Below, piece by piece: positions 7,184 to 25,116 of a DNA stretch of 64,000 nucleotides. This stretch comes from an uncultured Spirochaetota bacterium. GTDB taxonomy: Bacteria > Spirochaetota > B62-G9 > DRHN01. Position numbers and translations under genes: made by a program. The stretch's first letter is position 1, and every line of letters begins with the position of its first letter. The stretch covers positions 37,020-101,019 of the forward strand of contig CAYSRJ010000002.1 in assembly GCA_964433545.1 (NCBI GenBank), in the 5' to 3' direction. The notes below the pieces were generated by a model. It saw nothing but the letters and a program-made list of their open reading frames with translations, was not told where the DNA came from and did no database searches.

Positions 7184-8146
7184 TTACGCGTGAAGGAAGC
7201 AGGCGACGAACTGCCCGGGTTTATTTTCCTTCAATTCCGGTACTTCTTTATCGCATACGTCCATCTTATAAGGACATCGTGGATGGAACCTGCATCCTGA
7301 AGGAGGGTTGACAGGGCTCGGAACATCTCCCATTAGAATTTCCCCCTTTTTTCTGCGCCTCGGGTTGGGAATGGGTATTGCTGATAGAAGCGCTTCAGTG
7401 TATGGGTGCTTTGGGTCGTCAAAGAGAATTTTTTTAGGTGCCATTTCAACAATTTTGCCCAGGTACATGACTGCAACGCGGTCGCTGATGTGTTTTATGA
7501 TACTCAGATCGTGAGCGATGAAGAGAAGGGTTATCCCGAATTCCTCCTGCAAATCCTGCAATAAATTGATGATCTGGGCCTGAATTGAAACATCCAGAGC
7601 GGAGACTGACTCATCTGCAACGATAAATTCCGGGTTTATCGCCAGAGCCCGTGCGATTCCGATTCGCTGCCTCTGTCCCCCACTGAACTCATGGGGATAG
7701 CGAAACCTCTGATCGGCTGTGAGCCCCACCTTTTCCATTATTTCTATTACCTTCTCATCTCGTTCTTTTTTCGGTACGGTTCTATGCACTGCCAGAGGTT
7801 CGGCAATTGCTGATTTCACGGTCATTCTCGGATCAAGGGAGCCAAACGGGTCCTGGTAAATGATCATCATCCTGCGCCTGATCGGCATCATCTCCTTTTT
7901 TTTCAAATGAGTGATTTCTCTGCCACCAAAATAGATGCTGCCTTCGGTAGGATCCAGTATCTTCAGGATAACCTTCCCGCACGTTGTTTTGCCGCAGCCC
8001 GATTCTCCGACAAGCCCGAGGACTTCTTTCTGTTTAATAAAGAAGCTCACATCATCCACAGCCCTCACGGCCTCTTTTCCCATAGGGCCCCTCTTCCCTG
8101 TCCAGAACCATTTTCTCAGATTTTTAACTTCAACCGTTTTCTCCAA
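7184..8146 (-). CDS. oppF: Oligopeptide/dipeptide ABC transporter ATP-binding protein (OppF/DppF-like)
   Basis: 320 aa; Walker [10 protein letters not shown]; C-terminal oligopeptide-ABC extension with conserved Cys. Confidence 0.85.
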
Positions 8147-8171
8147 CCTGACTGTCCCCCTGGAGTTTTTC

Positions 8172-9134
8172 TTAATATAAGTGGCATTTTACGAAATGAT
8201 TGGTATCGATTTCCTTTAATTCCGGAGATTCGGTGACACATTTTTCGAAGCAAAAATTGCACCGTGGATGAAATGAACATCCTGAGGGCATGGCTAAAAG
8301 ATTCGGGACCAGACCTTTTATTGTATCGAGACGTTTCACGTTTTTGTCCAGCCGAGGTATGGATTTATTGAGTCCCATCGTATAGGGGTGGAGCGGGTTG
8401 CTGAACAGTGCATCAATATCGGCATACTCAACGATGTGTCCTGCATACATCACTGCAACATCGTCACACATTTCTGCAATCACACCGAGATCATGGGTTA
8501 TCAGCAGTACCGAAGCGTTGATTTTAGCCTTCATTTCATTGATCAATCTCAGGATCTGGGCCTGGATGGTTACATCAAGTGCGGTTGTAGGTTCATCGGC
8601 GATGAGCAGCGCAGGGTGGCAGGACAACGCCATTGCGATCATTACTCTTTGTCTCATTCCGCCGGAAAGCTCATGAGGGTAGTTGTTTAACCTCTTTTCT
8701 GCATCAGGAATCCCGACAATCGCAAGTGCTCCTATTGCTGCTTTTTTTGCCTCTGTCTTATTCAATCCCTGATGCAGGGTGATTGATTCCATTATTTCAT
8801 GGCCGATGGTGAATACGGGGTCAAGTGATGTCATTGGCTCCTGAAAAATCATTGATATTTCGCACCCTCGAATCTTTCTCATTTCCCTTTCAGTCAGATT
8901 CAGGAGGTTCTTTCCCTTAAAGATTATTTCTCCTCCCACAATCTTTCCGGGAGGATACGGAACCAGCCTCAAGATGGAAAGAGCCGTAATACTCTTGCCG
9001 CATCCGGATTCTCCGACGAGCCCCAGTGTCTTGCCCTGGTTTATGGTTAGACTTATTCCATCAACAGCTTTTGCTGTTCCCTCATACATATAAAATGAAG
9101 TTTGCAGGTTTTTTAAATTCAGCAACTCTTTCAT
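8172..9134 (-). CDS. oppD: Oligopeptide/dipeptide ABC transporter ATP-binding protein (OppD/DppD-like)
   Basis: 320 aa; Walker A GESGCGKS; LSGGMRQR signature. Confidence 0.85.
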
Positions 9135-9142
9135 ATTCCGCC

Positions 9143-10024
9143 CTATGTTTTCAATCTTGGGTCAAGAATATCCCGCAGGCCGTCTCCCAGCAGGTTGAGG
9201 CCTAACACCGAAAAAAGAATGGCAATACCGGGAAAAGTAGCCACCCACCATGCGCCGCTCACTATGTAGGAGTAACTTTTAGAGAGCATCGCTCCCCATT
9301 CAGGAGTTGGGGGCTGGGCTCCCAGGCCCAGAAAACCCAGCGCTGCACAGTCAAGAATTGCCGTCGCCAGCATCAGGGTTCCGTATACAATCACCGGTGC
9401 AACGCTGTTCGGTAGAACATGACGGAAAATAATCCGCAGGTTTCGTGAACCGAGCGCAGTCTGCACCTCTATATACTCCATTTCCTTGATGTAGAGTACC
9501 GAGCTCCTTATAATTCTCGCCATCTGCGGTGTGTATACAATACCGATAGCTATCATTGCTTTACTCAGCCCCTGGCCTATGATGGTCACGATGACGATTG
9601 CAAGAAGCAGCGCAGGGAATGCAAACATAATGTCGACGAATCTCATAATTGTTGCATCGACCCATCCCCCGAAATAGCCCGCGATTATTCCAAAGGTAAT
9701 GCCGAGTATCATTGCAATGCCAACGGCAACAAAACCTGCACTCAAACTGACCCTGGTTCCGTATATGATTCTGCTGAGAACACACCGTCCGAGGGCATCG
9801 GTTCCAAGCGGCTTGCCCTTCAGGCCTTCTGCGCTCCAGAAACCTGGTTTTAATTTATTGGCAAGATCGGGCGGTGAGGGAATGGGATCATTGGGCGCAA
9901 TGATGTTTGCGAAAATTGCACAGAGGATTAAAATAATGAGAATTACAAGACCGAACGTCGCGGACTTGTTGTATTTCAGCCGTCTTATTACTTCTGCGGC
10001 TCTGGTTTCTTTCTTCTTCTCCAT
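9143..10024 (-). CDS. oppC: Oligopeptide ABC transporter permease (OppC/DppC-like)
   Basis: 293 aa membrane protein of the BPD_transp_1 family; operon context. Confidence 0.85.
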   Translation of the reverse strand: MEKKKETRAAEVIRRLKYNKSATFGLVILIILILCAIFANIIAPNDPIPSPPDLANKLKPGFWSAEGLKGKPLGTDALGRCVLSRIIYGTRVSLSAGFVAVGIAMILGITFGIIAGYFGGWVDATIMRFVDIMFAFPALLLAIVIVTIIGQGLSKAMIAIGIVYTPQMARIIRSSVLYIKEMEYIEVQTALGSRNLRIIFRHVLPNSVAPVIVYGTLMLATAILDCAALGFLGLGAQPPTPEWGAMLSKSYSYIVSGAWWVATFPGIAILFSVLGLNLLGDGLRDILDPRLKT

Positions 10025-10035
10025 TTGTATCCTGC

Positions 10036-11040
10036 TTACTTGTATTTAATCCTCGGATCGATGAACACATAGAGGATATCTGTAATCAGATTTACGATAA
10101 CGAACATAAAAGCAAAAAACAGCACACACCCCTGTACGGCGGGGTAATCTCGCATGCGCACCGCATTTATAACGTATCTCCCTATTCCTGGCCAGGAGAA
10201 AACTGTTTCTGTGAGGATTGCGCCTGCCAGAAGCAAACCGAAGTTCAATCCTATAACCGTAATTACAGGAAGCATTGCGTTTTTCGCCGCGTGTTTATAG
10301 ATGACAAGCCGTTCCGATAGGCCTTTTGCGCGTTCCGTGCGGATGTAATCCTGTCTCAATACCTCCAGCATACTCGACCGGGTCACTCTGGCGATCGTTG
10401 CCATGGGGATGGTGCCGAGGGCGACGGAGGGAAGGATTAAATAGCGGATAGTGCTTATGAGAGCCGGACCATTCCAGGTAATGATGCTGTCAAGAAGGTA
10501 GAAGCCGGTGATATGCCTGAAGGGAATAAGTGAATCGATACGCCCGCTTATGGGAAGCCACCGTAAAAACACGCCAAAAACCATCATGAGCATAATACCA
10601 AGCCAGAAAACTGGCATAGAGACCCCGAAAAGCGCGACTCCCATGGTGGAATAATCGAGAATAGAGTACTGCCTGGAAGCCGAGATGATCCCCGCGAATG
10701 AACCGACAAGAATGGCGATCGCCATTGCACAGAAGGTGAGCTCAACAGTATTGGGAAACCTGTGAAATATTTCCTTTGTAACGTATTCATTTGAAACAAT
10801 AGAGCGTCCCATATCACCATGCAGGACTCTTTTCAGCCAGATCCAGTACTGCGTTGTAAGCGGTTTATCAAGTCCGTATTTTTCTCTTATTGCATTGATT
10901 GTCTGCACGGATGCATGCTCACCCGCCATCGTTATTGCGGGGTCTCCCGGTGCTAGCTGTATTAACGCAAATGAAAGCATTGAAACACCCAGCAATACGG
11001 GTACGAGCATGAGAAGGCGCTTGGTGATATACCATTTCAT
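10036..11040 (-). CDS. oppB: Oligopeptide ABC transporter permease (OppB/DppB-like)
   Basis: 334 aa membrane protein; operon context. Confidence 0.85.
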   Translation of the reverse strand: MKWYITKRLLMLVPVLLGVSMLSFALIQLAPGDPAITMAGEHASVQTINAIREKYGLDKPLTTQYWIWLKRVLHGDMGRSIVSNEYVTKEIFHRFPNTVELTFCAMAIAILVGSFAGIISASRQYSILDYSTMGVALFGVSMPVFWLGIMLMMVFGVFLRWLPISGRIDSLIPFRHITGFYLLDSIITWNGPALISTIRYLILPSVALGTIPMATIARVTRSSMLEVLRQDYIRTERAKGLSERLVIYKHAAKNAMLPVITVIGLNFGLLLAGAILTETVFSWPGIGRYVINAVRMRDYPAVQGCVLFFAFMFVIVNLITDILYVFIDPRIKYK

Positions 11041-11310
11041 TTATTGGTACCTTTTTTCTCCGGCATGACGAAGAATATGTAACCCTGAACCTTACTTTAT
11101 TACAACCTTTTATCGCCCGCACAGGAAAAAAAACATGCTTTCCCAGAAAAATCTTGGGCGAGATGCAGTACTCTTCGGTTTTGTGGGGAAAAACCATATG
11201 ACGCGTGTTGGTTTGCACCTTTTATGATTGAAAGTTCATTTGTCTATTATTTAACCGGCAAAGGAGTGAAATCCCCTTTGCCGGTTAAAAATTATACACA
11301 ATACGCTATC

Positions 11311-13026
11311 TTACTTTATCCACACAGGGTAGAAAAACTTTCTCGATGTGGGATGCAGCGTGTATCCCTCTACATTTGACCTGAACACGATATTCTGATT
11401 GGAATGAGCAATATATACCCAGTTTGCACTTTCATGAATTCTCACCTGTGCTTCCTTGTAGTATTCTGCACGTTTTTTCACATCGTAGGTCTGCAGCGCT
11501 GCGGTAAGAAGCTCCTGTGTTTTTTCGTCGTTATAGAAGCCGTAGTTGCCGGCTTTACCTATCGAACAGGCATTTGCGCCGTACAGGACGTTCATAAAAT
11601 TGTCCGGGTCGCCGTTGTCGCCTGTCCACCCGAGAAGACACATCTGATGCTTTCCGGCCTCGGTTTCCTGCAGGTAGGTACCCCAGTCGACCTGGTAGAA
11701 CTTCACCTTGATGCCGACAGCGGCCAGATAACTCTGGATTGCCTCGCCGATCTTCGGAGGATCGAACATGTAGGGCCGTGATACCGGCATGACGTACAGG
11801 GTAACCTCAAATCCATCAGGATATCCTGCTTCTGCAAGAAGCTTCTTTGCCATCTCCGGATCGTAGGGATAATCTTTGATATCATTGTTGTATCCAAGCA
11901 TAAACGGCGGCATTCCGTTCTTTGCCACTATTGCGGTCCCCATGTAGATATTATCCACAATAGACTTTTTATCAATAGCGTAGTTGATGGCCTGTCTCAC
12001 CTTTTTCTTGGTGAGGGGTTCATAATATCCGGGAGTCTTGACAAGCGGTTCATCCGCGTCACGTATGCCGTTTCCATTGGCATCATTATATCCGTACCCG
12101 GCATTCATGGCCATATATCCAATATTCATTCCAGGCGCTGAGAGTAGTTTCAGATCTTTATTGGATTTAATTCTATCAAAGTCGGCAGGGTTCGGGTATT
12201 CGATACCCTGAACTTCACCGACCTCCAGGGCTAAAAGCCGTGCAGAAGGATCGGGGATAACCTTGAAGATCAACTTGTCCAGTTTGGGCCTTTTGCGCCA
12301 GTAGTTGTCGTTTGCCTCGAGAGTAATGTGGTCATCCTTTACCCACTCGACGAATTTGAAGGGGCCGGTCCCGCAGGGATGCTTGAAGGCATCGCCCTTG
12401 TATTTCTCGGCATTGGTCGGGCTTACAATAGCCGTTGTGAACATCGCAAGGCTTGTCATGATGGAAGCATTGACATTTTTAAGGACCAGTTTCACCGTAT
12501 AGTCGTCGATCTTCTCCATTCTGTCCACATCATAGAACATGTATCCCCAGTATGCCCATTCTCCGTACTGATGAAAGGGATGGTTCGTATCGTACTGTCT
12601 GGCAAAGGAAAATACAACGGCATCGGCATTAAAATCCGTTCCATCGTGGAATTTTACTCCCTTTCTCAAGTGAAAGGTAATTTCTTTGCCGTCTGCGGAT
12701 GTTTCCCAAGATGTGGCCAGGGCAGGTTGTATTTCTGTCGAACCCTTCTTATATTCAACCAGGCCTTCAAAAATGTTGTCCATTCTCTGTATGGACTCTC
12801 CGTCGGTCACATCTCCAGGGTCCAATCGAGACGCATCTCCGCTGCTGCCAAACACCATAATCTGAGCAGGAGCCTCCTTTTTCTCGGGAGCCGGAGCTTT
12901 CTCTTTCTCCTCTGCAGGTGCTGCTGCTGGAGCAGCCTCCTTCTTCTTGCCGCCGGCAAAGACGGCCTGCACTGAAAAAAGCATAGCCAGTGCAATAAAA
13001 ATGACGATGAATGTTTTGAACTTCAT
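11311..13026 (-). CDS. oppA: ABC transporter substrate-binding protein, family 5 (OppA/DppA-like), with signal peptide and a Pro/Ala/Lys-rich linker
   Basis: 571 aa; N-terminal signal; SBP_bac_5 features; followed by a 12-bp-stem hairpin (about 11255-11293) before oppB. Confidence 0.8.
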   Translation of the reverse strand: MKFKTFIVIFIALAMLFSVQAVFAGGKKKEAAPAAAPAEEKEKAPAPEKKEAPAQIMVFGSSGDASRLDPGDVTDGESIQRMDNIFEGLVEYKKGSTEIQPALATSWETSADGKEITFHLRKGVKFHDGTDFNADAVVFSFARQYDTNHPFHQYGEWAYWGYMFYDVDRMEKIDDYTVKLVLKNVNASIMTSLAMFTTAIVSPTNAEKYKGDAFKHPCGTGPFKFVEWVKDDHITLEANDNYWRKRPKLDKLIFKVIPDPSARLLALEVGEVQGIEYPNPADFDRIKSNKDLKLLSAPGMNIGYMAMNAGYGYNDANGNGIRDADEPLVKTPGYYEPLTKKKVRQAINYAIDKKSIVDNIYMGTAIVAKNGMPPFMLGYNNDIKDYPYDPEMAKKLLAEAGYPDGFEVTLYVMPVSRPYMFDPPKIGEAIQSYLAAVGIKVKFYQVDWGTYLQETEAGKHQMCLLGWTGDNGDPDNFMNVLYGANACSIGKAGNYGFYNDEKTQELLTAALQTYDVKKRAEYYKEAQVRIHESANWVYIAHSNQNIVFRSNVEGYTLHPTSRKFFYPVWIK

Positions 13027-13328: not shown

Positions 13329-14180
13329 TTATTTAATGTTGAGCTTAGTCTTCAGCGTGCTTATGAGGATCTCGTGGTTGATCGGCTTCTGAAAAATACC
13401 GTCAAGACCGAGCTCCTTCGCATCGATGTTGTAGCGAACCGTATCTCCTGCAGCGCTGAGCAGGTAGATTGGGCCCTTGAACCCCGATTCTTTCAGCTTC
13501 GCCGATACCTTGCTGCCGGCATCGACCGTTTCCATCATCAGGTCGACAATGACGGCATCAGGATTCACTTTCTGGGCGACTTTCAAGCCCTCTTCACCGT
13601 CACCCGCCTCTCCGATTGAAAATCCGGCTGCCTCTAACACTATGCGCATGGAAGCCCTGATATCGGCATCGTCATCAATGATTAATACTGTTTTTTCCTC
13701 ATTTTGCGTGGTTGCCATAGTTCTTTCCTCATATGTACGTAATAGTTGAGTTATAAAATGAAACGTCTCTCGGTAGTTCTCCCGTGCCCTTTCGGTGAAA
13801 CCCTCCGCAAACTCGAACTCGTATCCCCTGATGCCGATGATCCATACATCGGGTACCCTGCCGAATGCATCCTCACACAGGGCCACGACAGATTCAGGGT
13901 TGACCAGGTGACTCGTGAAGGTGATGGTGGAAGACGGCAACACCTTCCGAATTGAAAAGCAGTCGACATCCTGAACCGTCGTATCGATGAGGATGATAAA
14001 ATCATGCTCCGCCATTTCTGCGGCATCCTCGATACTCAGCTGGTAGTTCGCATCCGTTTCGACAAAGCTGTAACCGAGACATTCTATCTCCTCGATCATG
14101 GCCGGGCCAAGGCCGTCGTCCTGGCGACCCGGGTTCCCGTATCCGAATATGAGCACAGGTTTGCCGTCCAGCCCCTTCAA
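13329..14180 (-). CDS. hoxW: [NiFe]-hydrogenase maturation endopeptidase (HoxW/HybD/HycI family) fused to a C-terminal response-regulator receiver (REC) domain
   Basis: N-terminal VLIFGYGNPGRQDDGLGPAM protease motif (about 150 aa); C-terminal about 120 aa with VLIIDDD...DAVIVDLMM...FQKP receiver hallmarks; last gene of the hox operon. Confidence 0.75.
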   Translation of the reverse strand: MKGLDGKPVLIFGYGNPGRQDDGLGPAMIEEIECLGYSFVETDANYQLSIEDAAEMAEHDFIILIDTTVQDVDCFSIRKVLPSSTITFTSHLVNPESVVALCEDAFGRVPDVWIIGIRGYEFEFAEGFTERARENYRETFHFITQLLRTYEERTMATTQNEEKTVLIIDDDADIRASMRIVLEAAGFSIGEAGDGEEGLKVAQKVNPDAVIVDLMMETVDAGSKVSAKLKESGFKGPIYLLSAAGDTVRYNIDAKELGLDGIFQKPINHEILISTLKTKLNIK

Positions 14181-15619
14181 TCACGAACCTTTTCATCGAG
14201 CACTGCGCCGTTTTTGTCTTCCAGGGTCACGATAAGGGGCATCTGACCTATTGCATGGGTGGCACAGCTCAGGCAGGGGTCATAGGCCCGTATTGCAACT
14301 TCAACCAGGTTCAGAATAGGTTCTGTAACCTCCTTGCCGACAATATAATCCTCTGCAACAACGCGCACAGCCTCATTCATCGGCTGATTGTTGCTCGTTG
14401 TTGAAACGATGAGGTTTGCCATGGTAACCTGGTCTTTGTCGTCGACCTGATAGTGATGAAACAGGGTACCCCTCGGCGCCTCGATAATGGCAATTCCCTC
14501 GTTTCTTTTCTCGCCCGATACAACGAGGTCCTCCCCCTGTAGATCGGGATCATTCAGAAGTTCTTTAATCCTCTCAGCAGCATACAGGGTTTCGATCAGC
14601 CGCGCCCAGTGATAGGCCATGGTCGAATGAACGGGCCTGCCGCCCCCGAGCTCCATAAACTCCTGGCGCTCCTTCTCTGCCTTCGGCGTTGTGATAAAAT
14701 CACAGTTGTTCAGCCGTGCGAGCGGGCCGACGCGATACCAGCCCTTCTCCTGGCCGAGTGAGTAGATGAACGGGAATTTCATGTAGCTCCAGTTTCTCAC
14801 CCCTTCCCGAATATACTTCAGGTAGTCTTTCGGCTCGACCATATCGAAAATCAGTTTGCCGTCCGGGTCTTTCGCCCTGAGTTTTCCGTCATACATATCG
14901 AGCGCCCCATCCTCACGCACAATGCTGACAAAATTCGATTCAAAGGATCCGAGTTTGCCCAGGCGGGCGATATCGTCGCGGTAGAGTTTTTTGTACAGAT
15001 CAAGACCCCCCTGTGCCCAGTCGATCATCTGGTCGACATCCTTGAGCAGGGCATCCCGTTCTTCGATCGACAGGTTCTTATTGACGCCGCCGGGAATCGA
15101 ACCGTTTCCGTGTATCTTTTTGCCTGCGGTTGCCTTGATAACCTCCTGACCGTACTTTCGCATCATTACCGCCTGCACTGCAAGATCCGTGTTTTTCTTT
15201 GCGAGCCCGATGACGTTCCTGATTGCGGGGTCCGCATCGTATCCCAGTAAAAGATCGGGTGCACTGAGGTGGAAGAAGTGCAGTGAATGGGACTGGTATA
15301 CCTGCCCCATGTGCAGGAGCCTCCTCATCTTCTCGGCGGTCGACGTGAGCTTGTCTGCGCCGATAATGACATCCATTGCCTTGGATGCGCAGAGCAGGTG
15401 GCTGACAGGACATATCCCGCACAGGCGCTGCACTATAACCGGTGCTTCCCAGTACAGGCGGCCGCGCACAAAGCGTTCGAAACCACGAAACTCCACAATA
15501 TGCATCCTTGCCTTGTCGATCTTCCCGTTTTCATCGAGTCTGATCGTTACCTTGGCATGTCCTTCAATCCGTGTCACCGGGTTGATGACAATTTTTCTTG
15601 CTTTTGTCTCAGAAGCCAT
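14177..15619 (-). CDS. hoxH: [NiFe]-hydrogenase large subunit (group 3 bidirectional/HoxH-like)
   Basis: 480 aa; N-terminal RIEGHAKV and RLCGICPVSH (CxxC); C-terminal DPCLSCATHA metal-binding motif followed by a cleavable extension. Confidence 0.9.
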   Translation of the reverse strand: MASETKARKIVINPVTRIEGHAKVTIRLDENGKIDKARMHIVEFRGFERFVRGRLYWEAPVIVQRLCGICPVSHLLCASKAMDVIIGADKLTSTAEKMRRLLHMGQVYQSHSLHFFHLSAPDLLLGYDADPAIRNVIGLAKKNTDLAVQAVMMRKYGQEVIKATAGKKIHGNGSIPGGVNKNLSIEERDALLKDVDQMIDWAQGGLDLYKKLYRDDIARLGKLGSFESNFVSIVREDGALDMYDGKLRAKDPDGKLIFDMVEPKDYLKYIREGVRNWSYMKFPFIYSLGQEKGWYRVGPLARLNNCDFITTPKAEKERQEFMELGGGRPVHSTMAYHWARLIETLYAAERIKELLNDPDLQGEDLVVSGEKRNEGIAIIEAPRGTLFHHYQVDDKDQVTMANLIVSTTSNNQPMNEAVRVVAEDYIVGKEVTEPILNLVEVAIRAYDPCLSCATHAIGQMPLIVTLEDKNGAVLDEKVRD

Positions 15620-15639: not shown

Positions 15640-16179
15640 TTAGTCGTATTTGATTAACTCGTACGGCAGCTTGGGTTCTTCGCCTTTAAGCAGAGCCGTT
15701 AACGCAGCCCAGAAAGTTTCCGCTCTGGGAGGACAGCCGGGCAGCCAGTAATCGATCTTCACCACCTCGTGGATAGGGTAGACCTTGTCCAGGATAAGCG
15801 GAATATCGGGGTCGTTCGGGATGACGCCGTCGACGACGGACGGGCCTTTGAGATACGCTTCCTCCATGCATTCTCTGAGGGGAATCGTGTTTCTCAGGTG
15901 GGGAACCCCCCCGGTATTGGCGCATTCTCCGACTGAAATGAGAATTTTGCAGTGCTTGCGAAAAGAACGAAGCACCTCGACATTCTCCTGCGTCGAGCAT
16001 CCTCCCTCTATCAGGCCGATATCTACAGGGCCTGTAAACTTCTTTATATCGTCTATGGGTGATTTGTCGAAATCCACAAGCTCGATCAGGTCGAGTATCT
16101 TCTCATCGATGTCGAGCAGAGACATGTGACAGCCAAAGCACCCCGTCATATGAGTTGTCGCTACTTTTGGTTTGGCCAT
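15640..16179 (-). CDS. hoxY: [NiFe]-hydrogenase small subunit (HoxY-like, NuoB/20 kDa-type)
   Basis: 179 aa; Cys ligands typical of the proximal FeS cluster in group-3 small subunits; adjacent to the large subunit. Confidence 0.85.
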   Translation of the reverse strand: MAKPKVATTHMTGCFGCHMSLLDIDEKILDLIELVDFDKSPIDDIKKFTGPVDIGLIEGGCSTQENVEVLRSFRKHCKILISVGECANTGGVPHLRNTIPLRECMEEAYLKGPSVVDGVIPNDPDIPLILDKVYPIHEVVKIDYWLPGCPPRAETFWAALTALLKGEEPKLPYELIKYD

Positions 16180-16205: not shown

Positions 16206-16919
16206 TTACGGAGCCTTTTGAATATCCGAACCAATGGGTTGCTTGTCGTACAGGCGGGTGCCGAATGGCTTTGCATAGCCGATACGTTTGATGACAATAC
16301 AGCCGGTCGGGCAGATTGAAGCCGCCTTGTCGGCTGCTGCAAGCTCTGTATCGGATAATCGGTCGCCTTGTGAATTAACCGCGATTCGCTTGTTTATGCC
16401 GCGCCCGACAAACCCGAACACGCTTTTCCCATCGAGGTCACGCGATGCCCGCACACACCTTCCGCAGAGAACACACCGCTCACGGTCTATATACACATCC
16501 GGATGTGTCGCATCGACCTCGACATGTTTGTACTGGTAGGTGTATGTCGGGGTGAGCATGCCGAAACGGTATGCAAGCGCCTGCAGTTCGCAGTCGCCGC
16601 TTTTTTCACAGAACGGACAGAAGTGATTCCCCTCGACAAAAAGCATCTCAATTATATTCCGGCGCTCTTCTGTTAATTCCGGAGTTTCATTTTCGATGAC
16701 CATACCGTCTGCGGCAGGCATTGAACAGGCGTTAGTCGGTTTTCCGTTGACTTTTACCGTGCAGACACGGCAATGTCCGGCCGGAATCAGGTCCTTGTGA
16801 TAGCAGAGGCGTGGGATATAGATTCCCGCTTCATCGGCTGCCTGCATGATCGACTGGCCGGAAGCCGCCTTGATTTCTTTACCGTCAATGATTATTGTTA
16901 TTTTTTGCTCTTTCATCAT
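16206..16919 (-). CDS. hoxU: Hydrogenase diaphorase FeS subunit (HoxU-like; NuoG N-terminal/2Fe-2S + 4Fe-4S ferredoxin)
   Basis: 237 aa; N-terminal 2Fe-2S ferredoxin fold (ITIIIDGKEIKA...CYH...C..C) and multiple CxxCxxC motifs. Confidence 0.8.
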   Translation of the reverse strand: MMKEQKITIIIDGKEIKAASGQSIMQAADEAGIYIPRLCYHKDLIPAGHCRVCTVKVNGKPTNACSMPAADGMVIENETPELTEERRNIIEMLFVEGNHFCPFCEKSGDCELQALAYRFGMLTPTYTYQYKHVEVDATHPDVYIDRERCVLCGRCVRASRDLDGKSVFGFVGRGINKRIAVNSQGDRLSDTELAAADKAASICPTGCIVIKRIGYAKPFGTRLYDKQPIGSDIQKAP

Positions 16920-18739
16920 TCCTCCTCTTCCACCACAGGTTCTCTTCCAGCGATCTGGATTCCCACAGCAAGCGCTTTTTCATAGTCAAACGGCGGAATA
17001 AACTCGTCAGTTTTTGCCTTTGCCGTATACAGCGAGTGAAAATTTCTGAGCGTCGTCAGAATCGGATTTGCCGCAGTTTGGCCGAGGCCGCAGCGGCTCA
17101 TCTTCTCCACCGTGTTTCCGAGGCTCTCGATCTCCTGCAGGTCCAGTTTCGATCCTCTTCCTTCAAGAATTTTCTCGAGCTTCTGCAAAAGGAGTGTCGT
17201 TCCGACCCTGCATGGTGCACACCACCCGCACGATTCTTCAACAAAGAATTCGGTGAACTGCCTGACAATTTCAAGAAGGTCCCGTTCTTTGCTGAAAACG
17301 ATTATTGAGCCGCCGGTTGGAAGGTCTTCAAAACTGATACTTCTTCCAAAATCCTTCGGTGCAACGCATCGTCCGGATGGTCCGCCGACCTGAACCGCCT
17401 GTGTGTCTTTTGCTCCCACAAGATCGAGCAGATCGTCGATTGTAATTCCATATTCGACCTCATACACCCCTGGGTGCGCACAATCGCCTGACACGCTCAG
17501 GCATTTTGTACCTGTTGAATCTTTCGTGCCGATTTTCGAAAACCATTCGGCGCCCTTCTCCATGATACGGGCGGCGCAGCAGAATGTTTCGACATTGTTG
17601 ACGGAACTCGGCTGGTTCATATAGCCACGGGTAACGGGAAACGGCGGTCTGTCGCGCGGCGCGCCCCGTTTTCCTTCGAGCGATTCAATGAGTGCGGATT
17701 CTTCGCCGCACACATAGGCCCCTGCACCGACCTGAATTCGAATATCGAAGTCGAATCCCTGCCTGCCTGCGATATTTTTGCCGAGAAGGCCAAGATGTCT
17801 CCTACGATTAAGAACCTGCTCGAGTGAGCTGAGAAGGTATTTAAATTCTCCTCTCAGGTACATGAATCCCTGCGATGCGCCTATTGCATATCCTGCAATC
17901 GTCATTCCTTCAAAAGCGAGATCTGCAGCTTCGGTGAGGATGACCCTGTCTTTAAAGGTGCCGGGTTCTCCTTCATCCGCATTGCAGATCACATAGTGCT
18001 CTTTTCCCTCCGATTTTCTGCAGAAGTTCCACTTCATGCCCGTCGGAAAACCGGCACCGCCGCGGCCGCGAAGGCGTGATTCGGTAATTGTATTTATCAC
18101 ATCCTCCGGTGACATGTTGAGTGCGGCCCTGATTCCGCTCCCCGGTTCCTGAGGGGAGAAAACAACGGGACCTGTTTTATTGAGATTGTTCTCCACCAGG
18201 GTGGCAGGAAGAACCGTCGCTGCTTTTTCAGGGCTGTACTTCGAACCGCCTTTGAGCTCTTTTACTATGCCCGGCACATCTTCCGGACATATTTTTGTAA
18301 CGGGGATGCCGTTGATGAGAGCAGACGGAGGCTGATCACTCATCCCGATACATGAAGTGTACTCAAGTGAAATCGAACCGTCCGTGCTCGTGCTGCCGAA
18401 GGGAACACCCACTTCTTTTTCGAAGGTATCCGCGACAAGGTCGGCCCCATGCAATCTCTCGACAACAGCATTGCAGAGACGGACCACGCTCTTTCCTGTC
18501 GGTTCACGAGAAAAGAAGGTATAAAAACTCACCATGTCACGAACTTCGACGAGGGGGATACCCAGTGCCCTTGCAATGTGCCCCATGCTCTCCTCGGAAA
18601 TATATCCGAATCGATTTTGTACCTTTTGTGCAATATCCATCAAGTTGCTGCGGTCGCTGCAGCACTCCTCGACAATTTCCTTGATGGCTTTACTTTGATC
18701 ATTTGCCATTACTGTACCTCCGATTGAATAATCAGTCAC
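16916..18739 (-). CDS. hoxF: NAD(P)H-binding diaphorase subunit (HoxF-like; fused NuoE-like thioredoxin-fold 2Fe-2S domain + NuoF FMN/NADH/4Fe-4S domain)
   Basis: 607 aa; NuoF-type GxGxxG/FMN motifs and C-terminal CxxCxxC...C cluster; N-terminal NuoE-like region. Confidence 0.85.
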   Translation of the reverse strand: MTDYSIGGTVMANDQSKAIKEIVEECCSDRSNLMDIAQKVQNRFGYISEESMGHIARALGIPLVEVRDMVSFYTFFSREPTGKSVVRLCNAVVERLHGADLVADTFEKEVGVPFGSTSTDGSISLEYTSCIGMSDQPPSALINGIPVTKICPEDVPGIVKELKGGSKYSPEKAATVLPATLVENNLNKTGPVVFSPQEPGSGIRAALNMSPEDVINTITESRLRGRGGAGFPTGMKWNFCRKSEGKEHYVICNADEGEPGTFKDRVILTEAADLAFEGMTIAGYAIGASQGFMYLRGEFKYLLSSLEQVLNRRRHLGLLGKNIAGRQGFDFDIRIQVGAGAYVCGEESALIESLEGKRGAPRDRPPFPVTRGYMNQPSSVNNVETFCCAARIMEKGAEWFSKIGTKDSTGTKCLSVSGDCAHPGVYEVEYGITIDDLLDLVGAKDTQAVQVGGPSGRCVAPKDFGRSISFEDLPTGGSIIVFSKERDLLEIVRQFTEFFVEESCGWCAPCRVGTTLLLQKLEKILEGRGSKLDLQEIESLGNTVEKMSRCGLGQTAANPILTTLRNFHSLYTAKAKTDEFIPPFDYEKALAVGIQIAGREPVVEEEE

Positions 18740-19364: not shown

Positions 19365-19607
19365 ATGCACGAGCTTTCAATCACGGAAGAGCTGCTTATG
19401 ATAATACACCGGCGTGCTGGAGAGGAGGGCATACAGAAGATTTCGAAAATCAACCTGAAAATCGGAAAGTACTCCGGTGTGTTCACCGATGCGCTTCTCT
19501 TTGCATTCGACGTGCTCTCGAAGGACACAATTTCCGAGGGGGCTCACATCAGTATAGAAGAGACAGGAGGGTCTGAACTCCAGGTTCTTTCGTTTGAGGG
19601 AGACTGA
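19365..19607 (+). CDS. hypA: HypA-like hydrogenase nickel insertion protein, truncated (N-terminal Ni-binding domain only; no Zn-finger)
   Basis: Starts MHELSITEEL (canonical MHE Ni-binding N-terminus); aligns to HypA residues 1-75, then stops; the CxxC...CxxC zinc motifs are absent in all frames downstream. Confidence 0.6.
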   Translation: MHELSITEELLMIIHRRAGEEGIQKISKINLKIGKYSGVFTDALLFAFDVLSKDTISEGAHISIEETGGSELQVLSFEGD

Positions 19608-19720
19608 CGGGTAAAATCCTCGGTTTACAGGAGATTTCAATAGTTATTCGGACGCTTCGCGTCTGAATAATGCCGCTTAACGGCGGAATCATATCAACTA
19701 CATCTTGAAAGGATGAATCC

Positions 19721-20362
19721 ATGAAGGTAAATGTTATGACCGATATTCTGCAGGCGAATGACCTTCTTGCGCAGGATATCAGGAATATACTTCATGACAA
19801 GAAGATCGCATGCTGGAATGTCATGGGATCGCCCGGTGCCGGAAAGACCGCAATGCTTGAACGGCTTGTGCCGATGTTGCCCGCGGAGATAAAAGCGGCC
19901 GTGATAGAGGGTGATCTCGCAACATCGCGTGATGCCGAGAGGATTTCGAAAACCGGCGTGCAGTCCGCGCAAATCAATACGAACGGCGCATGCCATCTGG
20001 ATGCCGCGATGGTGAGATCGGCTCTCGATACGATCGAGCTCGACGATATTTCCCTGCTGTTTATCGAAAATGTCGGAAACCTCGTCTGCCCGTCGGGTTT
20101 CGATCTCGGTGAGAAGGGAAGAATAATTGTCGCCGGTATTACAGAGGGCGATGACAAGCCGGAGAAATATCCCTCGATGTATAAGACTGCGGACCTGGTG
20201 GTGGTCAATAAGATGGATATGCAGGAGAACTCGAATTTCAAGATCGAGAACTTCGAAAAAGGGCTTAAAATGATCAACCCTTCATCTGATATTGTTCCCG
20301 TTTCCTCTGTAACCGGAGAAGGCTTTGACAATCTCCTCGGATGGATACTTGACAGGCAGTAA
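19721..20362 (+). CDS. hypB: Hydrogenase nickel incorporation GTPase HypB
   Basis: 213 aa; P-loop GSPGAGKT; ENVGNLVCP motif; SIMIBI GTPase. Confidence 0.9.
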   Translation: MKVNVMTDILQANDLLAQDIRNILHDKKIACWNVMGSPGAGKTAMLERLVPMLPAEIKAAVIEGDLATSRDAERISKTGVQSAQINTNGACHLDAAMVRSALDTIELDDISLLFIENVGNLVCPSGFDLGEKGRIIVAGITEGDDKPEKYPSMYKTADLVVVNKMDMQENSNFKIENFEKGLKMINPSSDIVPVSSVTGEGFDNLLGWILDRQ

Positions 20363-20365
20363 CAA

Positions 20366-22672
20366 ATGGAAAATGCCGGTACAACCGGTGCCGTTATATG
20401 GTACAAAGGCATCGTGCAGGGGGTGGGGTTTCGGCCGCTCGCGTACAGAAGGGCCCACCTTTATCGCCTCAGAGGAACCATCAGAAACACCGAAACCGGT
20501 GTGCACATTGAGCTGGACGGCTCAAGGCGGAGCATCGAACAATTCTACAGGGACGTTCTGAAAAATCCACCGGTTCTCGCTGAAATACATACAAGCTCGA
20601 TCGAATACACGAAACCGCACGGGTTTACAAAACTCAGGATTGCCGGGAGCACCGCAGAAGGAGAGGGGTTTACACCGATCTCCCCGGATATTGCCACCTG
20701 TGACAACTGCCTCGAGGAAGTATTCGATCCGAATAACAGAAGATATCTCTACCCTTTTACCAACTGTACCGACTGCGGACCGCGATTTACAATAATCCAG
20801 TCAGTTCCATATGATAGAAAAAATACGACGATGAGTGAATTCGTCATGTGCTCCGACTGCAGGGCCGAATATGAAAATCCCCTTGACCGCCGGTATCATG
20901 CTCAGCCGAATGCATGTCCCGTATGCGGGCCTTCACTCGAATTGAGGGCCCCGGACGGATCTGTTATCGAAAAAGACGCGCTGGATAATGCGGTCTCGCT
21001 GCTCGAACAGGGGGCTATTGTTGCAGTCAAAGGGCTCGGCGGCTATCATCTGGCAGTTTCACCGCAGAGGCCTGAGTGGGTAATGCGTCTACGGAAAATG
21101 AAGCGGAGGCCCGCAAAACCGTTTGCCTTGATGGCCCGGGATATGCCGACGATAAGGAAGTACTGCATCGTCGGGGAACGGGCAGAGGACCTGCTTGCAG
21201 GCTTTGAACGGCCCATCGTCCTGCTTCGGGGAAGGAAAGGCAAACTTCCCAATGAAATCGCCCCTGATACAGATTGTATCGGTATTATGCTGCCCTACAC
21301 TCCTCTGCATCATATTCTTCTAAGAGAAGGGCCTGAAATACTTATAATGACGAGCGCGAATGTATCCGAGGAACCGCTTGTCTACCGGGACGACGAGGCG
21401 TCAGAAGAGCTCACCGGTATTGCTGATGCATTTCTCGTGCATAACAGGAAGATACAGCGCCCCTGCGACGATTCGGTTTTTTTTGTGAGTGATGGGGTTC
21501 CTGTACCGGTGCGAAGGTCACGTGGGTATGTGCCGAAGGCTATACCCGTCGGCCCGCCTGAAAGGACACTGCTGGCGTTCGGCCCGAACGAAAAAAACAC
21601 CTTCTGTGTTTTTCGGGAAGAAATGGCCTATGTGAGCCACCACATAGGGGATCTGAACAACACCAAGAGTATCGACGCCTATACAGCGGGTATTCAGGAT
21701 TTTTTGAGTATGCTGAGGGTGGAGCCTGAAATACTCGTCTGTGACATACACCCCGATTATATAAGCACACGCATTGCAGAAAGGATGGCCTCGGATCGGG
21801 GAATACACCTTGAGCGCGTTCAGCATCATCATGCGCATATAGCCAGTGTTCTCGGTGAAGCAGATGTTAATGACGCCGTGATTGGTGTTGCACTTGACGG
21901 AACAGGATACGGGACTGACGAGACGATATGGGGTGGTGAGTTTCTTATTGCAACACAGAAGGATTTTACCAGGGCCGCGCGGTATTTCCCCGTTCCCATG
22001 CCTGGAGGTGAAAAGGCGATTATCGAAACTGACCGCATGGCGGTTTCTTACTTGCTTCATGCCTTTGGGTCAGCATCGGGAATTCCGGATTTCCCGTTTA
22101 TTGTAAAATACGATAAAAAAAAGCTGGCACTTTTTGAAAAGATGATACATTCGGGGATTAACTGCCCGCGTACCTCCTCCTGCGGCAGGTTGTTTGATGC
22201 GGTGTCGGCTCTGATAGGCCTCTGTGTTCAGCCGTCATATGATGCACAGCCGGCCGTGCTTCTTGAAACGGCGGCAGGTCCTCCGGAAGCACTGTCCCTG
22301 TCACCGGAGAATGCTTATTCATATAGTATCGATGACGGGATGAACCTGCATTTCGAGCCTGCAATCAGAGAAATCGTCAGCGATATGCAAGGGGGGAGTT
22401 CCCGCAATTTTATCTCACAAAAGTTTCATGCAGCTGTTATATTATCTGGTGTTGATGTATGCAGGCGCCTTCGGAAAAAAACAGGAATAAACACCATTGC
22501 CCTGAGCGGCGGTGTATTCCAGAACCGAATTATTTTAAAGCTCATCCGACGCCTGCTGTCGGAGAATAATTTTTCAGTGCTTTTTCACAGATTGATGCCA
22601 CCGAATGACGGCGGTATTTCCTTCGGGCAGGGAATTGTTGCCCGTCGGCGGTGCGGAAGGGGTGTGGAATAA
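20366..22672 (+). CDS. hypF: Carbamoyltransferase HypF
   Basis: 768 aa; N-terminal acylphosphatase domain, two CxxC-x18-CxxC zinc fingers, YrdC-like and Kae1/HypF C-terminal domains. Confidence 0.9.
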   Translation: MENAGTTGAVIWYKGIVQGVGFRPLAYRRAHLYRLRGTIRNTETGVHIELDGSRRSIEQFYRDVLKNPPVLAEIHTSSIEYTKPHGFTKLRIAGSTAEGEGFTPISPDIATCDNCLEEVFDPNNRRYLYPFTNCTDCGPRFTIIQSVPYDRKNTTMSEFVMCSDCRAEYENPLDRRYHAQPNACPVCGPSLELRAPDGSVIEKDALDNAVSLLEQGAIVAVKGLGGYHLAVSPQRPEWVMRLRKMKRRPAKPFALMARDMPTIRKYCIVGERAEDLLAGFERPIVLLRGRKGKLPNEIAPDTDCIGIMLPYTPLHHILLREGPEILIMTSANVSEEPLVYRDDEASEELTGIADAFLVHNRKIQRPCDDSVFFVSDGVPVPVRRSRGYVPKAIPVGPPERTLLAFGPNEKNTFCVFREEMAYVSHHIGDLNNTKSIDAYTAGIQDFLSMLRVEPEILVCDIHPDYISTRIAERMASDRGIHLERVQHHHAHIASVLGEADVNDAVIGVALDGTGYGTDETIWGGEFLIATQKDFTRAARYFPVPMPGGEKAIIETDRMAVSYLLHAFGSASGIPDFPFIVKYDKKKLALFEKMIHSGINCPRTSSCGRLFDAVSALIGLCVQPSYDAQPAVLLETAAGPPEALSLSPENAYSYSIDDGMNLHFEPAIREIVSDMQGGSSRNFISQKFHAAVILSGVDVCRRLRKKTGINTIALSGGVFQNRIILKLIRRLLSENNFSVLFHRLMPPNDGGISFGQGIVARRRCGRGVE

Positions 22673-22899
22673 TGTGTCTTGCGGTAACAGGAAAGATAAT
22701 AACTAAAGAGGGCTTGACCGGCGTAGTGGACATGAGTGGGATCAGGGTCAATACCGGTTTTCATCTTGTTCCGGAAGCAAAAGTGGGCGACTACGTTTTG
22801 CTTCATGCCGGGTTTGCCATACAGATCATTGACGAGCAGGAAGCGCTTGAAACGAACGCCCTGCTCGATGAGCTTCTTCATCCGGAGGAAATCCGGTGA
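22651..22899 (+). CDS. hypC: Hydrogenase maturation factor HypC
   Basis: 82 aa; starts MCLAV (essential Cys2); overlaps hypF by 22 nt. Confidence 0.85.
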   Translation: MRKGCGIMCLAVTGKIITKEGLTGVVDMSGIRVNTGFHLVPEAKVGDYVLLHAGFAIQIIDEQEALETNALLDELLHPEEIR

Positions 22900-23981
22900 A
22901 TGAACCGTACAGGGACAGGGAGCTGGTAAAGACGGTTACACGGAAAATACACGATGTCTATCCGGGCGACGCGGTCAAGATCATGGAAGTCTGCGGCACA
23001 CACACAATGGCGATCGCCAAATACGGCCTCAGAAGCCTTCTCCCGGACGGACTTTCGCTCATCTCCGGCCCTGGATGCCCGGTTTGTGTCACACCTTCAT
23101 CTATCATAAACGCGGTGCTCGAACTGGCAGTGCTTCCGAATGTCACTGTTGCGACATTCGGCGATATGATTCGTGTTCCGGGCTCTGATAAAAATCTCGA
23201 ACAGTTAAAAGCCGAAGGTGCCGATGTTCGCATTGTCTATTCGGCGTATGAACTGATCGACATGGCATCATCCGAAAAGGACAGGGAGTTCGTTTTCGTC
23301 AGTGTCGGATTCGAGACTACTACCCCTGGGATTGCGCTTGCAATTCTGGAGGCGGAAAAACGGGGTATAAAAAACCTGTTTTTCATAGCTGCAAACCGTC
23401 TGGTGATACCGGCGCTTGAGGCACTCTGCATCAGTGAGAACACGCTGATAGACGGTTTTTTATGCCCCGGCCATGTCAGCGTTATTATCGGCTGGGACGC
23501 GTACCGGCCGATTGCAGACCGGTTTCATGTGCCGTGCGTTGTCGGCGGTTTCGAGCCGGTTGATATATTGACGGCTGTCTACGAAATCGTCCGGCGGGTG
23601 TCAAAGGGAGAGGCTGGCGTCGCCAATACCTATAAAAGAGCGGTTTCCGAGAAAGGAAATGCGCGCGCCCTTGAAGTGATGGACAGGGTGTTCGAGCCGG
23701 CGGATGCCGCCTGGCGCGGTATAGGTACAATCCCAAAAAGCGGCCTAAAGCTTCGTGATGAGTTTGCCCACCTCGAGGCGCTGTCTCATTTTAGGGTTCA
23801 TCTCATCGAAAGCCCCGACCCGAAGGGGTGCCGATGCGGTGATGTTCTCAAGGGGGTGATAATTCCGCCTGAGTGTGCGTTGTTCGGAAAGAGATGCACC
23901 CCCGAGAATCCTGTCGGGCCGTGCATGGTTTCTTCTGAAGGATCCTGTGCAGCCTACTACAGGTACCCAAAAAGCGAGTAA
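22896..23981 (+). CDS. hypD: Hydrogenase maturation factor HypD
   Basis: 361 aa; CGxH, GPGCPVC and C-terminal CxxC...CxxC HypD motifs. Confidence 0.9.
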   Translation: MNEPYRDRELVKTVTRKIHDVYPGDAVKIMEVCGTHTMAIAKYGLRSLLPDGLSLISGPGCPVCVTPSSIINAVLELAVLPNVTVATFGDMIRVPGSDKNLEQLKAEGADVRIVYSAYELIDMASSEKDREFVFVSVGFETTTPGIALAILEAEKRGIKNLFFIAANRLVIPALEALCISENTLIDGFLCPGHVSVIIGWDAYRPIADRFHVPCVVGGFEPVDILTAVYEIVRRVSKGEAGVANTYKRAVSEKGNARALEVMDRVFEPADAAWRGIGTIPKSGLKLRDEFAHLEALSHFRVHLIESPDPKGCRCGDVLKGVIIPPECALFGKRCTPENPVGPCMVSSEGSCAAYYRYPKSE

Positions 23982-24072: not shown

Positions 24073-25116
24073 ATGAGCATTGAGAGAGTCCTTCTTATCC
24101 ATGGAGGCGGCGGACGCATGGCGAGAAGGCTCATCGAGAGCATCGTTTCAACATTCGACAATACGGCTTTGAGCCGGATGGAGGATGCATCGCCGATTTA
24201 CATTCCTGAGCATGAAAAAAAGTCAGCGGGCGACACTGCAGAACAGCAGCCGAGAATTGTCATGACGACCGACAGCTTTGTCGTGACCCCACTCTTTTTC
24301 CCCGGCGGAGACATCGGTAAGCTTTCTGTATGCGGAACAGTAAACGACCTCGCTACTGCCGGCGCGGTTCCCGCCGCCCTGTCTGTAGGGCTGATAATCG
24401 AGGAGGGCTTTCCTGTTCGGGACCTCGAGCGAGTGCTCACATCGATGAAGGAAACCGCAGACAGTGTACCCGTCCCACTCATAACGGGAGATACGAAGGT
24501 TGTAGAGAAGGGCAGGGGTGACGGTGTTTACATCTCGACCGCTGGAGTCGGGGTTGTGCGGCCCGGTATCGAACTTTCGCCGGCGCGGATTGAGGAGGGA
24601 GACACGGTACTTATCAACGGTTCCATAGGCAACCATGAGGCCTCTATACTGAGTGCGAGAAACGAACTTTCACTGGGAGCGAAAATAGAATCAGATTGCG
24701 CTCCTCTAGGCGATCTCATGCAGACAGTTCTCGAAGCCGCGCCGGAAGCCAAATGTGCGCGTGACCCGACCAGGGGAGGGGTTACAGCAGTTCTCTGTGA
24801 GCTTGCTGAAAGCGCCGGATGCACTATAACACTTGATGAAGAGGCAATTCCGGTCAATGAAGATGTGCAGGGCCTCTGCGACATACTCGGTCTCGATCCA
24901 TTGCAGATGGCGAATGAGGGAAAGATGATCGTGATTGTGCCCGGTAGAATGGCGCAGATAGTTCTCGAAGCGATGAAAACCCTCGACGTTGGAAGGAACA
25001 GTGTGAAAATCGGAGAGGTCCAAAAAGGACCAGGACGTCTCGTTATGAAAACACCATACGGGACGAGCAGGATCATCACCATGCCGGTAGGGAACCAGCT
25101 CCCCCGCATATGTTGA
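24073..25116 (+). CDS. hypE: Hydrogenase maturation factor HypE (carbamoyl dehydratase)
   Basis: 347 aa; PurM-like fold; C-terminal ...PRIC motif. Confidence 0.9.
   Translation: MSIERVLLIHGGGGRMARRLIESIVSTFDNTALSRMEDASPIYIPEHEKKSAGDTAEQQPRIVMTTDSFVVTPLFFPGGDIGKLSVCGTVNDLATAGAVPAALSVGLIIEEGFPVRDLERVLTSMKETADSVPVPLITGDTKVVEKGRGDGVYISTAGVGVVRPGIELSPARIEEGDTVLINGSIGNHEASILSARNELSLGAKIESDCAPLGDLMQTVLEAAPEAKCARDPTRGGVTAVLCELAESAGCTITLDEEAIPVNEDVQGLCDILGLDPLQMANEGKMIVIVPGRMAQIVLEAMKTLDVGRNSVKIGEVQKGPGRLVMKTPYGTSRIITMPVGNQLPRIC

Follow-up and report, generated by a model that had tools for sequence, protein, structure and literature searches.

HypA is one of six universal [NiFe]-hydrogenase maturation proteins, and the role of its zinc domain is still debated: scaffold, hinge, and sensor of pH, zinc or iron have all been considered. 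HypA is reported to be modulated through the zinc site by pH in Helicobacter pylori and, in Methanococcus maripaludis, by iron versus zinc. A zinc site made of two CxxC motifs is stated for all HypA proteins (PMC7055735), and a role in nickel binding is assigned to the N-terminal MHE (PMC7055735, PMC5557546). Here we describe the hypA gene of an uncultured Spirochaetota bacterium, located in a window of 64 kb (the whole stretch of DNA analysed, from contig CAYSRJ010000002.1 of assembly GCA_964433545.1). Its product has the MHE motif, the synteny and the association with hyp and hydrogenase genes that characterise HypA, but not the two CxxC motifs. The gene is intact, conserved and under selection, and it occupies the hypA slot of a full hyp operon; a HypA nickel-domain fold is predicted for the protein. 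Full-text literature searches returned no report of a HypA that naturally lacks the zinc site, and we regard the protein as a variant, new to the literature, of a known chaperone.

The 80-residue HypA and its missing zinc finger

The gene (19365..19607, plus strand, stop included) is an open reading frame (ORF) with an ATG start and a TGA stop, without an in-frame start upstream of Met1, and encodes 80 amino acids (MHELSITEELL...SFEGD; complete sequence MHELSITEELLMIIHRRAGEEGIQKISKINLKIGKYSGVFTDALLFAFDVLSKDTISEGAHISIEETGGSELQVLSFEGD), none of which is cysteine. This zinc-finger-less "mini-HypA" scored 61.9 bits against the Pfam HypA family PF01155 (cutoff 28.9), with residues 1-67 aligned to positions 1-67 of the 112-position profile, and 60.1 bits against the NCBIfam equivalog TIGR00100, under the cutoff of 88.1. 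The codons of Met1-His2-Glu3, the N-terminal nickel-binding motif, lie at 19365..19373 (+). M1-H2-E3 is kept in 52 of 52 homologues, and H2 and E3 in all 34 of a set of diverse zinc-less HypAs. Because homology, synteny, motif and predicted fold agree, the gene product is a HypA orthologue, and an earlier note on this DNA, which had called the ORF a hypA with the canonical N-terminus, was correct in this respect.

The same note had the protein aligning to about residues 1-75 of HypA and then terminating. The zinc finger is indeed missing, but there is no C-terminal truncation, as residues 68-80 correspond to the last HypA beta-strand, which is still present (GSELQVLSFEGD). In a phmmer comparison, residues 68-80 (GGSELQVLSFEGD) were paired with residues 99-113 of H. 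pylori HypA (TQGNEMRLLSLE), a pairing that is insignificant alone. In a multiple alignment, they match the C-terminal GGxELxIxSFEGD of 111-residue relatives column by column, and the gap of approximately 31 residues in that alignment coincides exactly with the CxxC-Xn-CxxC zinc finger of these relatives. Judged from the alignments, what the window HypA lacks is an internal, in-frame segment of about 31 residues comprising the zinc finger, with the C-terminus retained. At the canonical zinc-finger site, the codons of E66-T67-G68-G69 (19560..19571, +) would encode a tight turn between beta2 and beta3, as indicated by alignment with relatives of 111-113 residues and by DSSP on the structural model. 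The codons of residues 70-80 (SELQVLSFEGD; 19572..19604, +) are assigned to the last beta-strand of the nickel domain, which the protein has kept, on the basis of alignments and invariance within the clade.

Structure prediction agreed with the alignments. An AlphaFold2 model built with the 52-sequence alignment reached a mean predicted local distance difference test (pLDDT) score of 95.4 and a predicted template modelling (pTM) score of 0.83, and DSSP assigned helix 2-20, strand 26-34, helix 41-51, strand 61-67 and strand 72-79. The prediction thus shows two helices against a sheet of three strands, the last of them formed by the C-terminus, which is the fold of the nickel domain. When the model was compared with the PDB using Foldseek, all 14 matches at E<=1e-3 were HypA structures; it superposed on Thermococcus kodakarensis HypA (3a43_B) with a template modelling (TM) score of 0.94 and a root-mean-square deviation of 1.6 A, and on H. 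pylori HypA (6g81) with a TM score of 0.87, both alignments bridging the zinc domain. Based on the alignment, the model and these superpositions, the window HypA is predicted to be a whole nickel domain (alpha1-beta1-alpha2-beta2-beta3) with an ETGG turn in the place of the zinc finger.

A displaced zinc finger was also sought. The hypA-hypB spacer (113 nt, 19608..19720, +) holds a zinc-finger remnant in no frame, and six-frame translation of the spacer and its flanks gave no CxxC motif. The earlier statement that no CxxC...CxxC follows in any frame before hypB thus held, and the cysteine-rich half that a corrected frameshift might have restored was not found. A scan of the 64-kb window for CxxC-x(8-30)-CxxC found the motif, among plausible genes, in the two HypF fingers and DnaJ only; the remaining match, in an antisense frame within hoxF, does not correspond to a gene. 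The spacer translation and the window-wide scan together rule out a frameshifted zinc ribbon, or one encoded in trans within the window. Furthermore, there is no second MHE-initiated HypA-like ORF in the 64-kb window.

The spacer contains a perfect 13-bp stem with a 3-nt loop at 19643-19671 (+; GUUAUUCGGACGC UUC GCGUCUGAAUAAU), and the 126-nt region around this hairpin folds at -39.7 kcal/mol (z = -3.8). No T-run terminator is present at the hairpin. Neither the hairpin nor the spacer length (35-192 nt) is kept in the five related loci L001-L005 described below, and for this reason a role for the hairpin was set aside and it was treated as incidental.

Zinc-less HypAs in Spirochaetota and beyond

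A search of 5.8 billion proteins yielded 52 relatives of the window HypA. Approximately 35 clusters of 80-81 residues are 61-96% identical to it; they derive from JGI, ENA, NCBI and Logan assemblies, and the named ones are Spirochaetota. Twenty-three positions are invariant across the 35-member clade, including M1-H2-E3, E71-L72-Q73 and F77-E78-G79. In a scan of the best HypA loci using one genome per species (GTDB), the 80-residue form was found in five species-level Spirochaetota metagenome-assembled genomes (MAGs; loci L001-L005), and the cysteine motifs were present in all other 75 best loci. The Nei-Gojobori ratio of nonsynonymous to synonymous substitution rates (dN/dS) was 0.055-0.147 for every pair with unsaturated synonymous sites; for the remaining pairs, dS was saturated, yet the length and frame of hypA were unchanged. 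The 80-residue hypA is under strong purifying selection.

In the closest spirochaete relatives, the same slot is taken by a zinc-containing protein. Loci L006-L010, also from Spirochaetota, encode HypAs of 111 residues with both CxxC motifs, placed as in the window at the head of hypA-B-F-C-D-E, which is followed by enolase on the opposite strand. Four 111-residue relatives (P0025, P0030, P0037 and P0039) are 65-70% identical to the window HypA over the 80 shared columns. This comparison of orthologous loci, which the earlier note had recommended, places the 80-residue form in L001-L005 and the zinc finger in the same slot of L006-L010, and the alignment shows the 80-residue protein to be complete for its clade, which refutes truncation and confirms a minimal HypA. 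The hyp operons of L006-L010 lack the divergent hoxFUYH-hoxW(REC) operon upstream; in L007, for example, the upstream genes encode NikR (directly upstream of hypA), a thioredoxin and an MMPL transporter. In this spirochaete sample, a hox operon adjoins five of five zinc-less loci versus none of the four testable zinc-containing loci. A neighbour-joining (NJ) tree of concatenated HypB, HypF, HypD and HypE (1632 columns) recovered the bipartition of zinc-less and zinc-containing loci with approximately 30% bootstrap support, and an 80-column HypA NJ tree recovered spirochaete zinc-less monophyly in 6 of 200 bootstraps. Neither tree gives proof of a single zinc-finger loss within Spirochaetota.

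Zinc-less HypAs are not confined to this clade. A profile of the 80-residue clade, searched against 1.84 billion representatives at 50% identity, returned 5611 HypA-family proteins. Among the best 150 of these 5611 matches, an automatic length-and-motif filter marked 41 as having no zinc finger, besides two spirochaete representatives. On inspection, approximately 37 of the 41 look intact at about 80 residues, and the rest are probably frameshifted or cut off (e.g., P0054, P0110 and P0147). The intact diverged proteins match the profile end to end and share a junction in which beta2 is followed by a turn of 3-4 residues with a near-invariant Gly, a Glu and beta3. A second database search with an alignment of the diverged zinc-less HypAs gave about 30 more. 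Many of the diverged proteins are singletons on short metagenomic contigs, and several are robust. Among the latter are those of Paenibacillus thiaminolyticus (WP_272044439.1, P0219; 34 index blocks including complete genomes), Desulfotomaculum defluvii (WP_459910607.1, P0086; 81 residues, L089 10001-10246, annotated at source as "hypothetical protein"), Aquicella lusitana (P0294; complete genome), an Anaerospora sp. MAG (MDF2928325.1, P0134) and Deltaproteobacteria MAGs, together with one 90% cluster that has 64 members on hundreds of contigs.

The neighbourhoods of the diverged zinc-less HypAs, judged from called genes and Pfam families, were varied. In A. lusitana (P0294, L091), an 80-residue hypA heads hypBFCDE beside a sulfhydrogenase-like (group-3b-like) hydrogenase and HycI, and the metagenomic P0142 (L086) has the same hyp arrangement with the start of a sulfhydrogenase-like operon, the contig ending in the small subunit. 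The arrangement is hoxFUYH...hypA-hypB for metagenomic P0084 (L087). The hyp operon of P. thiaminolyticus (P0154, L088) and the full hyp operon of D. defluvii (P0086, L089) each lie beside an enzyme of a small (~300 residues) and a large (~465 residues) subunit, with HycI. Two further metagenomic genes are found at the end of an Mbh/Mrp-type membrane-bound (group-4-like) operon (P0188, L090) and with a pair of a 597-residue large and a 349-residue small subunit (P0050, L081). In the MAG GCA_016234925.1 (P0058, L084; 8001-10489), the order is a PF27218 (MJ0043_C) protein, the 80-residue hypA, hypC, a 680-residue prismane/hybrid-cluster-family protein and hypD, with neither hypB nor a hydrogenase near hypA. 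These differing gene sets rule out a link of zinc loss to one hydrogenase group.

The window HypA is 30-46% identical to the diverged zinc-less HypAs, versus up to 70% to zinc-containing spirochaete HypAs, and the nearest neighbour is a zinc-containing protein for 20 of the 41 other zinc-less representatives. None of 200 NJ bootstraps joined all zinc-less sequences in one clade, and the window clade grouped with zinc-containing spirochaete HypAs in 91 of 200. One ancient zinc-less subfamily is made improbable by the absence of the united clade from the bootstraps and by the position of the window clade beside zinc-containing spirochaetes. Given the zinc-containing nearest neighbours and the 0 of 200 bootstraps, the simplest and most likely reading of these sequences is that the zinc finger was deleted repeatedly and independently, in structurally equivalent ways.

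The hyp operon and the presumed client hydrogenase

The hyp operon of the window opens with hypA and has the order hypA-B-F-C-D-E. This first gene is followed by hypB (19721..20362, +; TIGR00073, 256.7 bits), which by alignment encodes a type-I GTPase nickel chaperone without an N-terminal CxxCGC or His-rich region, and by hypF (20366..22672, +; Pfam acylphosphatase, two zf-HYPF, Sua5 and HypF_C), hypC (22672..22899, +; Pfam HupF_HypC, 80.7 bits), hypD (22896..23981, +; Pfam HypD, 491 bits) and hypE (24073..25116, +; Pfam AIRS and AIRS_C), the last of which is syntenic in L001-L010. The mechanical hypC ORF runs from GTG 22651 and its Pfam match begins at ORF residue 8; the likely start is ATG 22672, which gives the canonical HypC N-terminus (MCLAVTG...). 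Cys2 of HypC is essential. This ATG overlaps the hypF stop (TGATG), and GTG 22896 of hypD overlaps the hypC stop; the overlaps indicate translational coupling through the hyp operon.

Divergent from hypA is a set of hydrogenase genes on the minus strand. It comprises a hoxF-like diaphorase subunit, a fusion of NuoE-like 2Fe-2S and NuoF-like parts (16916..18739, -; Pfam 2Fe-2S_thioredx, Complex1_51K and NADH_4Fe-4S), a hoxU-like (NuoG-like) Fe-S subunit (16206..16919, -; Pfam Fer2_4 and NADH-G_4Fe-4S_3), a hoxY-like [NiFe] hydrogenase small subunit (15640..16179, -; Pfam Oxidored_q6) and a hoxH-like group 3 large subunit (14177..15619, -; Pfam NiFeSe_Hases), the presumed client of HypA. The best NCBIfam match of the large subunit is VhuA (427 bits, below cutoff). 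Its C-terminus carries DPCLSCATH followed by a 25-residue extension, and because of this extension it would need nickel-dependent proteolytic maturation. With large and small subunits, a diaphorase module of NuoE/F-like and NuoG-like parts, and the C-terminal extension, the four-gene enzyme is by its gene content a group 3 (Hox-type) cytosolic bidirectional [NiFe] hydrogenase, which may belong to subgroup 3d or be 3c-like.

The last gene of the hox operon (13329..14180, -) encodes a HoxW-like maturation endopeptidase fused to a C-terminal receiver (REC). The protease part was recognised by TIGR00072 (54.3 bits, cutoff 47.45; residues 10-146; motif GYGNPGRQDDGLGP) and was not detected by Pfam HycI, and the receiver part was recognised by PF00072 (residues 165-276). 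The fusion is kept in L001, L004 and L005 at 66-88% identity, and its domain composition suggests that the final proteolytic step in hydrogenase maturation may be under phosphorylation control. As far as the contigs reach, the layout of hoxW(REC)-hoxH-Y-U-F divergent from hypA-B-F-C-D-E plus enolase is kept in all five zinc-less genomes.

The hox operon is directly followed, on its own strand, by a five-gene ABC transporter of the Opp/Dpp/Nik family (7184-13026, -). The binding protein (11311-13026) and one permease (10036-11040) were scanned, and the other three ORFs (7184-10024) were assumed from size and position. The binding protein scored higher with DppA (407 bits) than with NikA (238 bits), both below their cutoffs. 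Nickel import by this transporter is possible and is unsupported by the scores.

Probable function without the zinc finger and comparison with known HypAs

We consider it probable that the window gene encodes a functional minimal HypA acting in nickel insertion; nickel binding, docking to HypB and delivery to HoxH are inferred by analogy with the established pathway (PMC12134894, PMC7055735, PMC3287977 and PMC13202556), the HypB and HyhL contact surfaces being taken from reviews. HypB, the co-transcribed GTPase, would bind nickel at the Cys-His...Cys site of its G domain (putatively GACHL...LVCP in the window) and would dock HypA through its conserved hydrophobic N-terminal peptide. The HypB N-terminus MK[VI]xVM is common to zinc-less and zinc-containing relatives and is the counterpart of the hydrophobic HypA-binding peptide mapped in Archaeoglobus fulgidus and Escherichia coli HypB (PMC3287977). 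Nickel would then be handed to the site formed by the Met1 amine, His2 and Glu3 of HypA, which would deliver it to a HoxH precursor already carrying Fe(CN)2CO from HypCDEF, and the REC-fused HoxW-like protease would cut off the 25-residue extension of HoxH. The whole route would run without zinc, and hence without zinc-, iron- or pH-dependent modulation through the zinc site.

Several points weigh against a functional protein of this kind. Watanabe et al. are said to have found in 2015, for the T. kodakarensis HypA-HypB complex, that a His adjoining the zinc domain completes the high-affinity nickel site; there is no conserved counterpart in the zinc-less clade, where His61 occurs only in the window protein and its two closest relatives. 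Compensation by HypB, which the earlier note had offered, found no support. An alignment of HypB from five zinc-less and five zinc-containing loci showed a plain type-I GTPase in both groups. It revealed no extra metal-binding region, CxxCGC motif, His-rich stretch, added domain or compensating insertion, and only two columns that weakly discriminate between the groups. In H. pylori, hydrogenase activity is abolished or strongly reduced when single cysteines of the zinc site are substituted (PMC5557546). The zinc domain is also credited with stabilising HypA and with an important part in partner interaction (PMC13202556), so that function in its absence is not self-evident. A point mutant that retains a misfolded zinc domain is, however, a different matter from a protein in which the domain has been removed cleanly and the gap bridged by a tight turn. 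Finally, we covered 64 kb of this genome and, for each relative, 20 kb, and a second, full-length hypA or hybF may lie elsewhere.

The last point leads to an alternative that we regard as unlikely, although it deserves more weight than the others: that the mini-HypA is a functional accessory paralogue (a hydrogenase-specific adaptor, a nickel buffer or a HypB modulator, comparable to HybF alongside HypA in E. coli) and that a full-length zinc-containing HypA or HybF encoded elsewhere does the core job. HypA has known paralogues that confer specificity for a hydrogenase (PMC12134894), and in one unrelated lineage (L090) the mini-HypA is placed not in a hyp operon but, by itself, at the tail of a group-4 hydrogenase operon. 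The perfect tracking of zinc loss with the adjacent hox operon in the testable spirochaete loci also counts for this alternative, as does the scope of our search for another hypA, which was 64 kb of this genome. Nevertheless, the window, L001, L003, L004 and L005 each show one hypABFCDE operon with a single hypA slot, and the mini-HypA fills it. Synteny (hypBFCDE plus eno) makes this slot orthologous to that of the 111-residue hypA of related spirochaetes, and the single slot is likewise filled by a zinc-less protein in Aquicella, Paenibacillus, Desulfotomaculum and L086. As weak evidence in the same direction, none of the other 75 best loci in the GTDB scan came from the five zinc-less assemblies.

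The earlier note had also raised a pseudogene and a sequencing or assembly truncation, and both fare worse than the paralogue. A decaying remnant, with nickel inserted by HypB alone or at high ambient nickel, would agree with the bypass of hypA and hypB defects by high nickel (PMC12134894, PMC3287977) and with the defects of H. pylori zinc-site Cys mutants (PMC5557546). It is contradicted by the low dN/dS, by a constant length free of frameshifts and stops across lineages with saturated synonymous sites, by the 23 invariant residues including MHE and the confidently predicted fold, and by the repeated retention of the zinc-less architecture in unrelated phyla; we hold it to be very improbable. 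Repeated retention in the hypA position of hyp operons also makes a non-functional form unlikely. An artefact, in which a collapsed or mis-joined region took 93 nt out of a normal hypA, is scarcely credible: the unusual length is all that speaks for it, and the same 80-residue architecture recurs in independent JGI, ENA, NCBI and Logan assemblies, in five species-level MAGs with diverged DNA and in isolate genomes of other phyla, with reading frame and C-terminal strand preserved. Considering five genomes, about 35 clusters, the dN/dS values, and the constant length and frame, we exclude both explanations. What stands of the earlier proposals is the minimal natural HypA, backed by the clusters, the five Spirochaetota genomes, the selection analysis and a complete predicted nickel domain.

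Going from a functional minimal HypA in this window to the family as a whole, we lean, by a narrow preference, towards the view that the zinc finger lies outside the core nickel-insertion machinery, as a dispensable add-on of HypA that was deleted independently many times. In this view, cysteine-free mini-HypAs of 80 residues form a widespread class across Spirochaetota, Bacillota, Pseudomonadota and further phyla, where they would serve as the sole HypA for [NiFe] hydrogenases of Hox-like, sulfhydrogenase-like and other kinds. Zinc-less HypAs in complete hyp operons, among them those of the cultured A. lusitana, P. thiaminolyticus and D. defluvii, offer a ready-made test of the role of the zinc domain: if the mini-HypA inserts nickel, the nickel domain alone suffices, and the zinc finger would be regulatory or client-specific. 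There are practical consequences as well. Since the scores of zinc-less HypAs against the NCBIfam equivalog stay under its cutoff, hyp operons may be wrongly scored as having no hypA; in databases, some of these proteins are automatically named HypA and at least one is a "hypothetical protein". An 80-residue, cysteine-free, zinc-independent chaperone could also be a simpler part for the heterologous expression of hydrogenases.

Compared with canonical HypA/HybF (E. coli; H. pylori, 6G81 and 2KDX; T. kodakarensis, 3A43), the window protein shares MHE, the predicted two-helix, three-strand fold (TM 0.87-0.94) and the position as first hyp gene directly upstream of hypB. The canonical proteins have 111-139 residues with the zinc finger between beta2 and beta3, whereas the window HypA has 80 residues and no cysteine and, unlike them, would have no structural zinc binding, no zinc-site domain swap, and no pH or iron sensing through a zinc site. 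The 111-residue HypAs of other Spirochaetota have in common with it the C-terminal GGxELxIxSFEGD, the synteny of the hyp locus and a type-I HypB, and differ in retaining their CxxC motifs and in having a hyp operon without an upstream hox operon. The other zinc-less HypAs (P. thiaminolyticus, A. lusitana, D. defluvii and Anaerospora) share its length, its junction, MHE and a hyp or hydrogenase neighbourhood, but they are 30-46% identical to it and have neighbours of their own, which are sulfhydrogenase-like, Hox-like, Mbh/Mrp-like or uptake-like pairs of small and large subunits.

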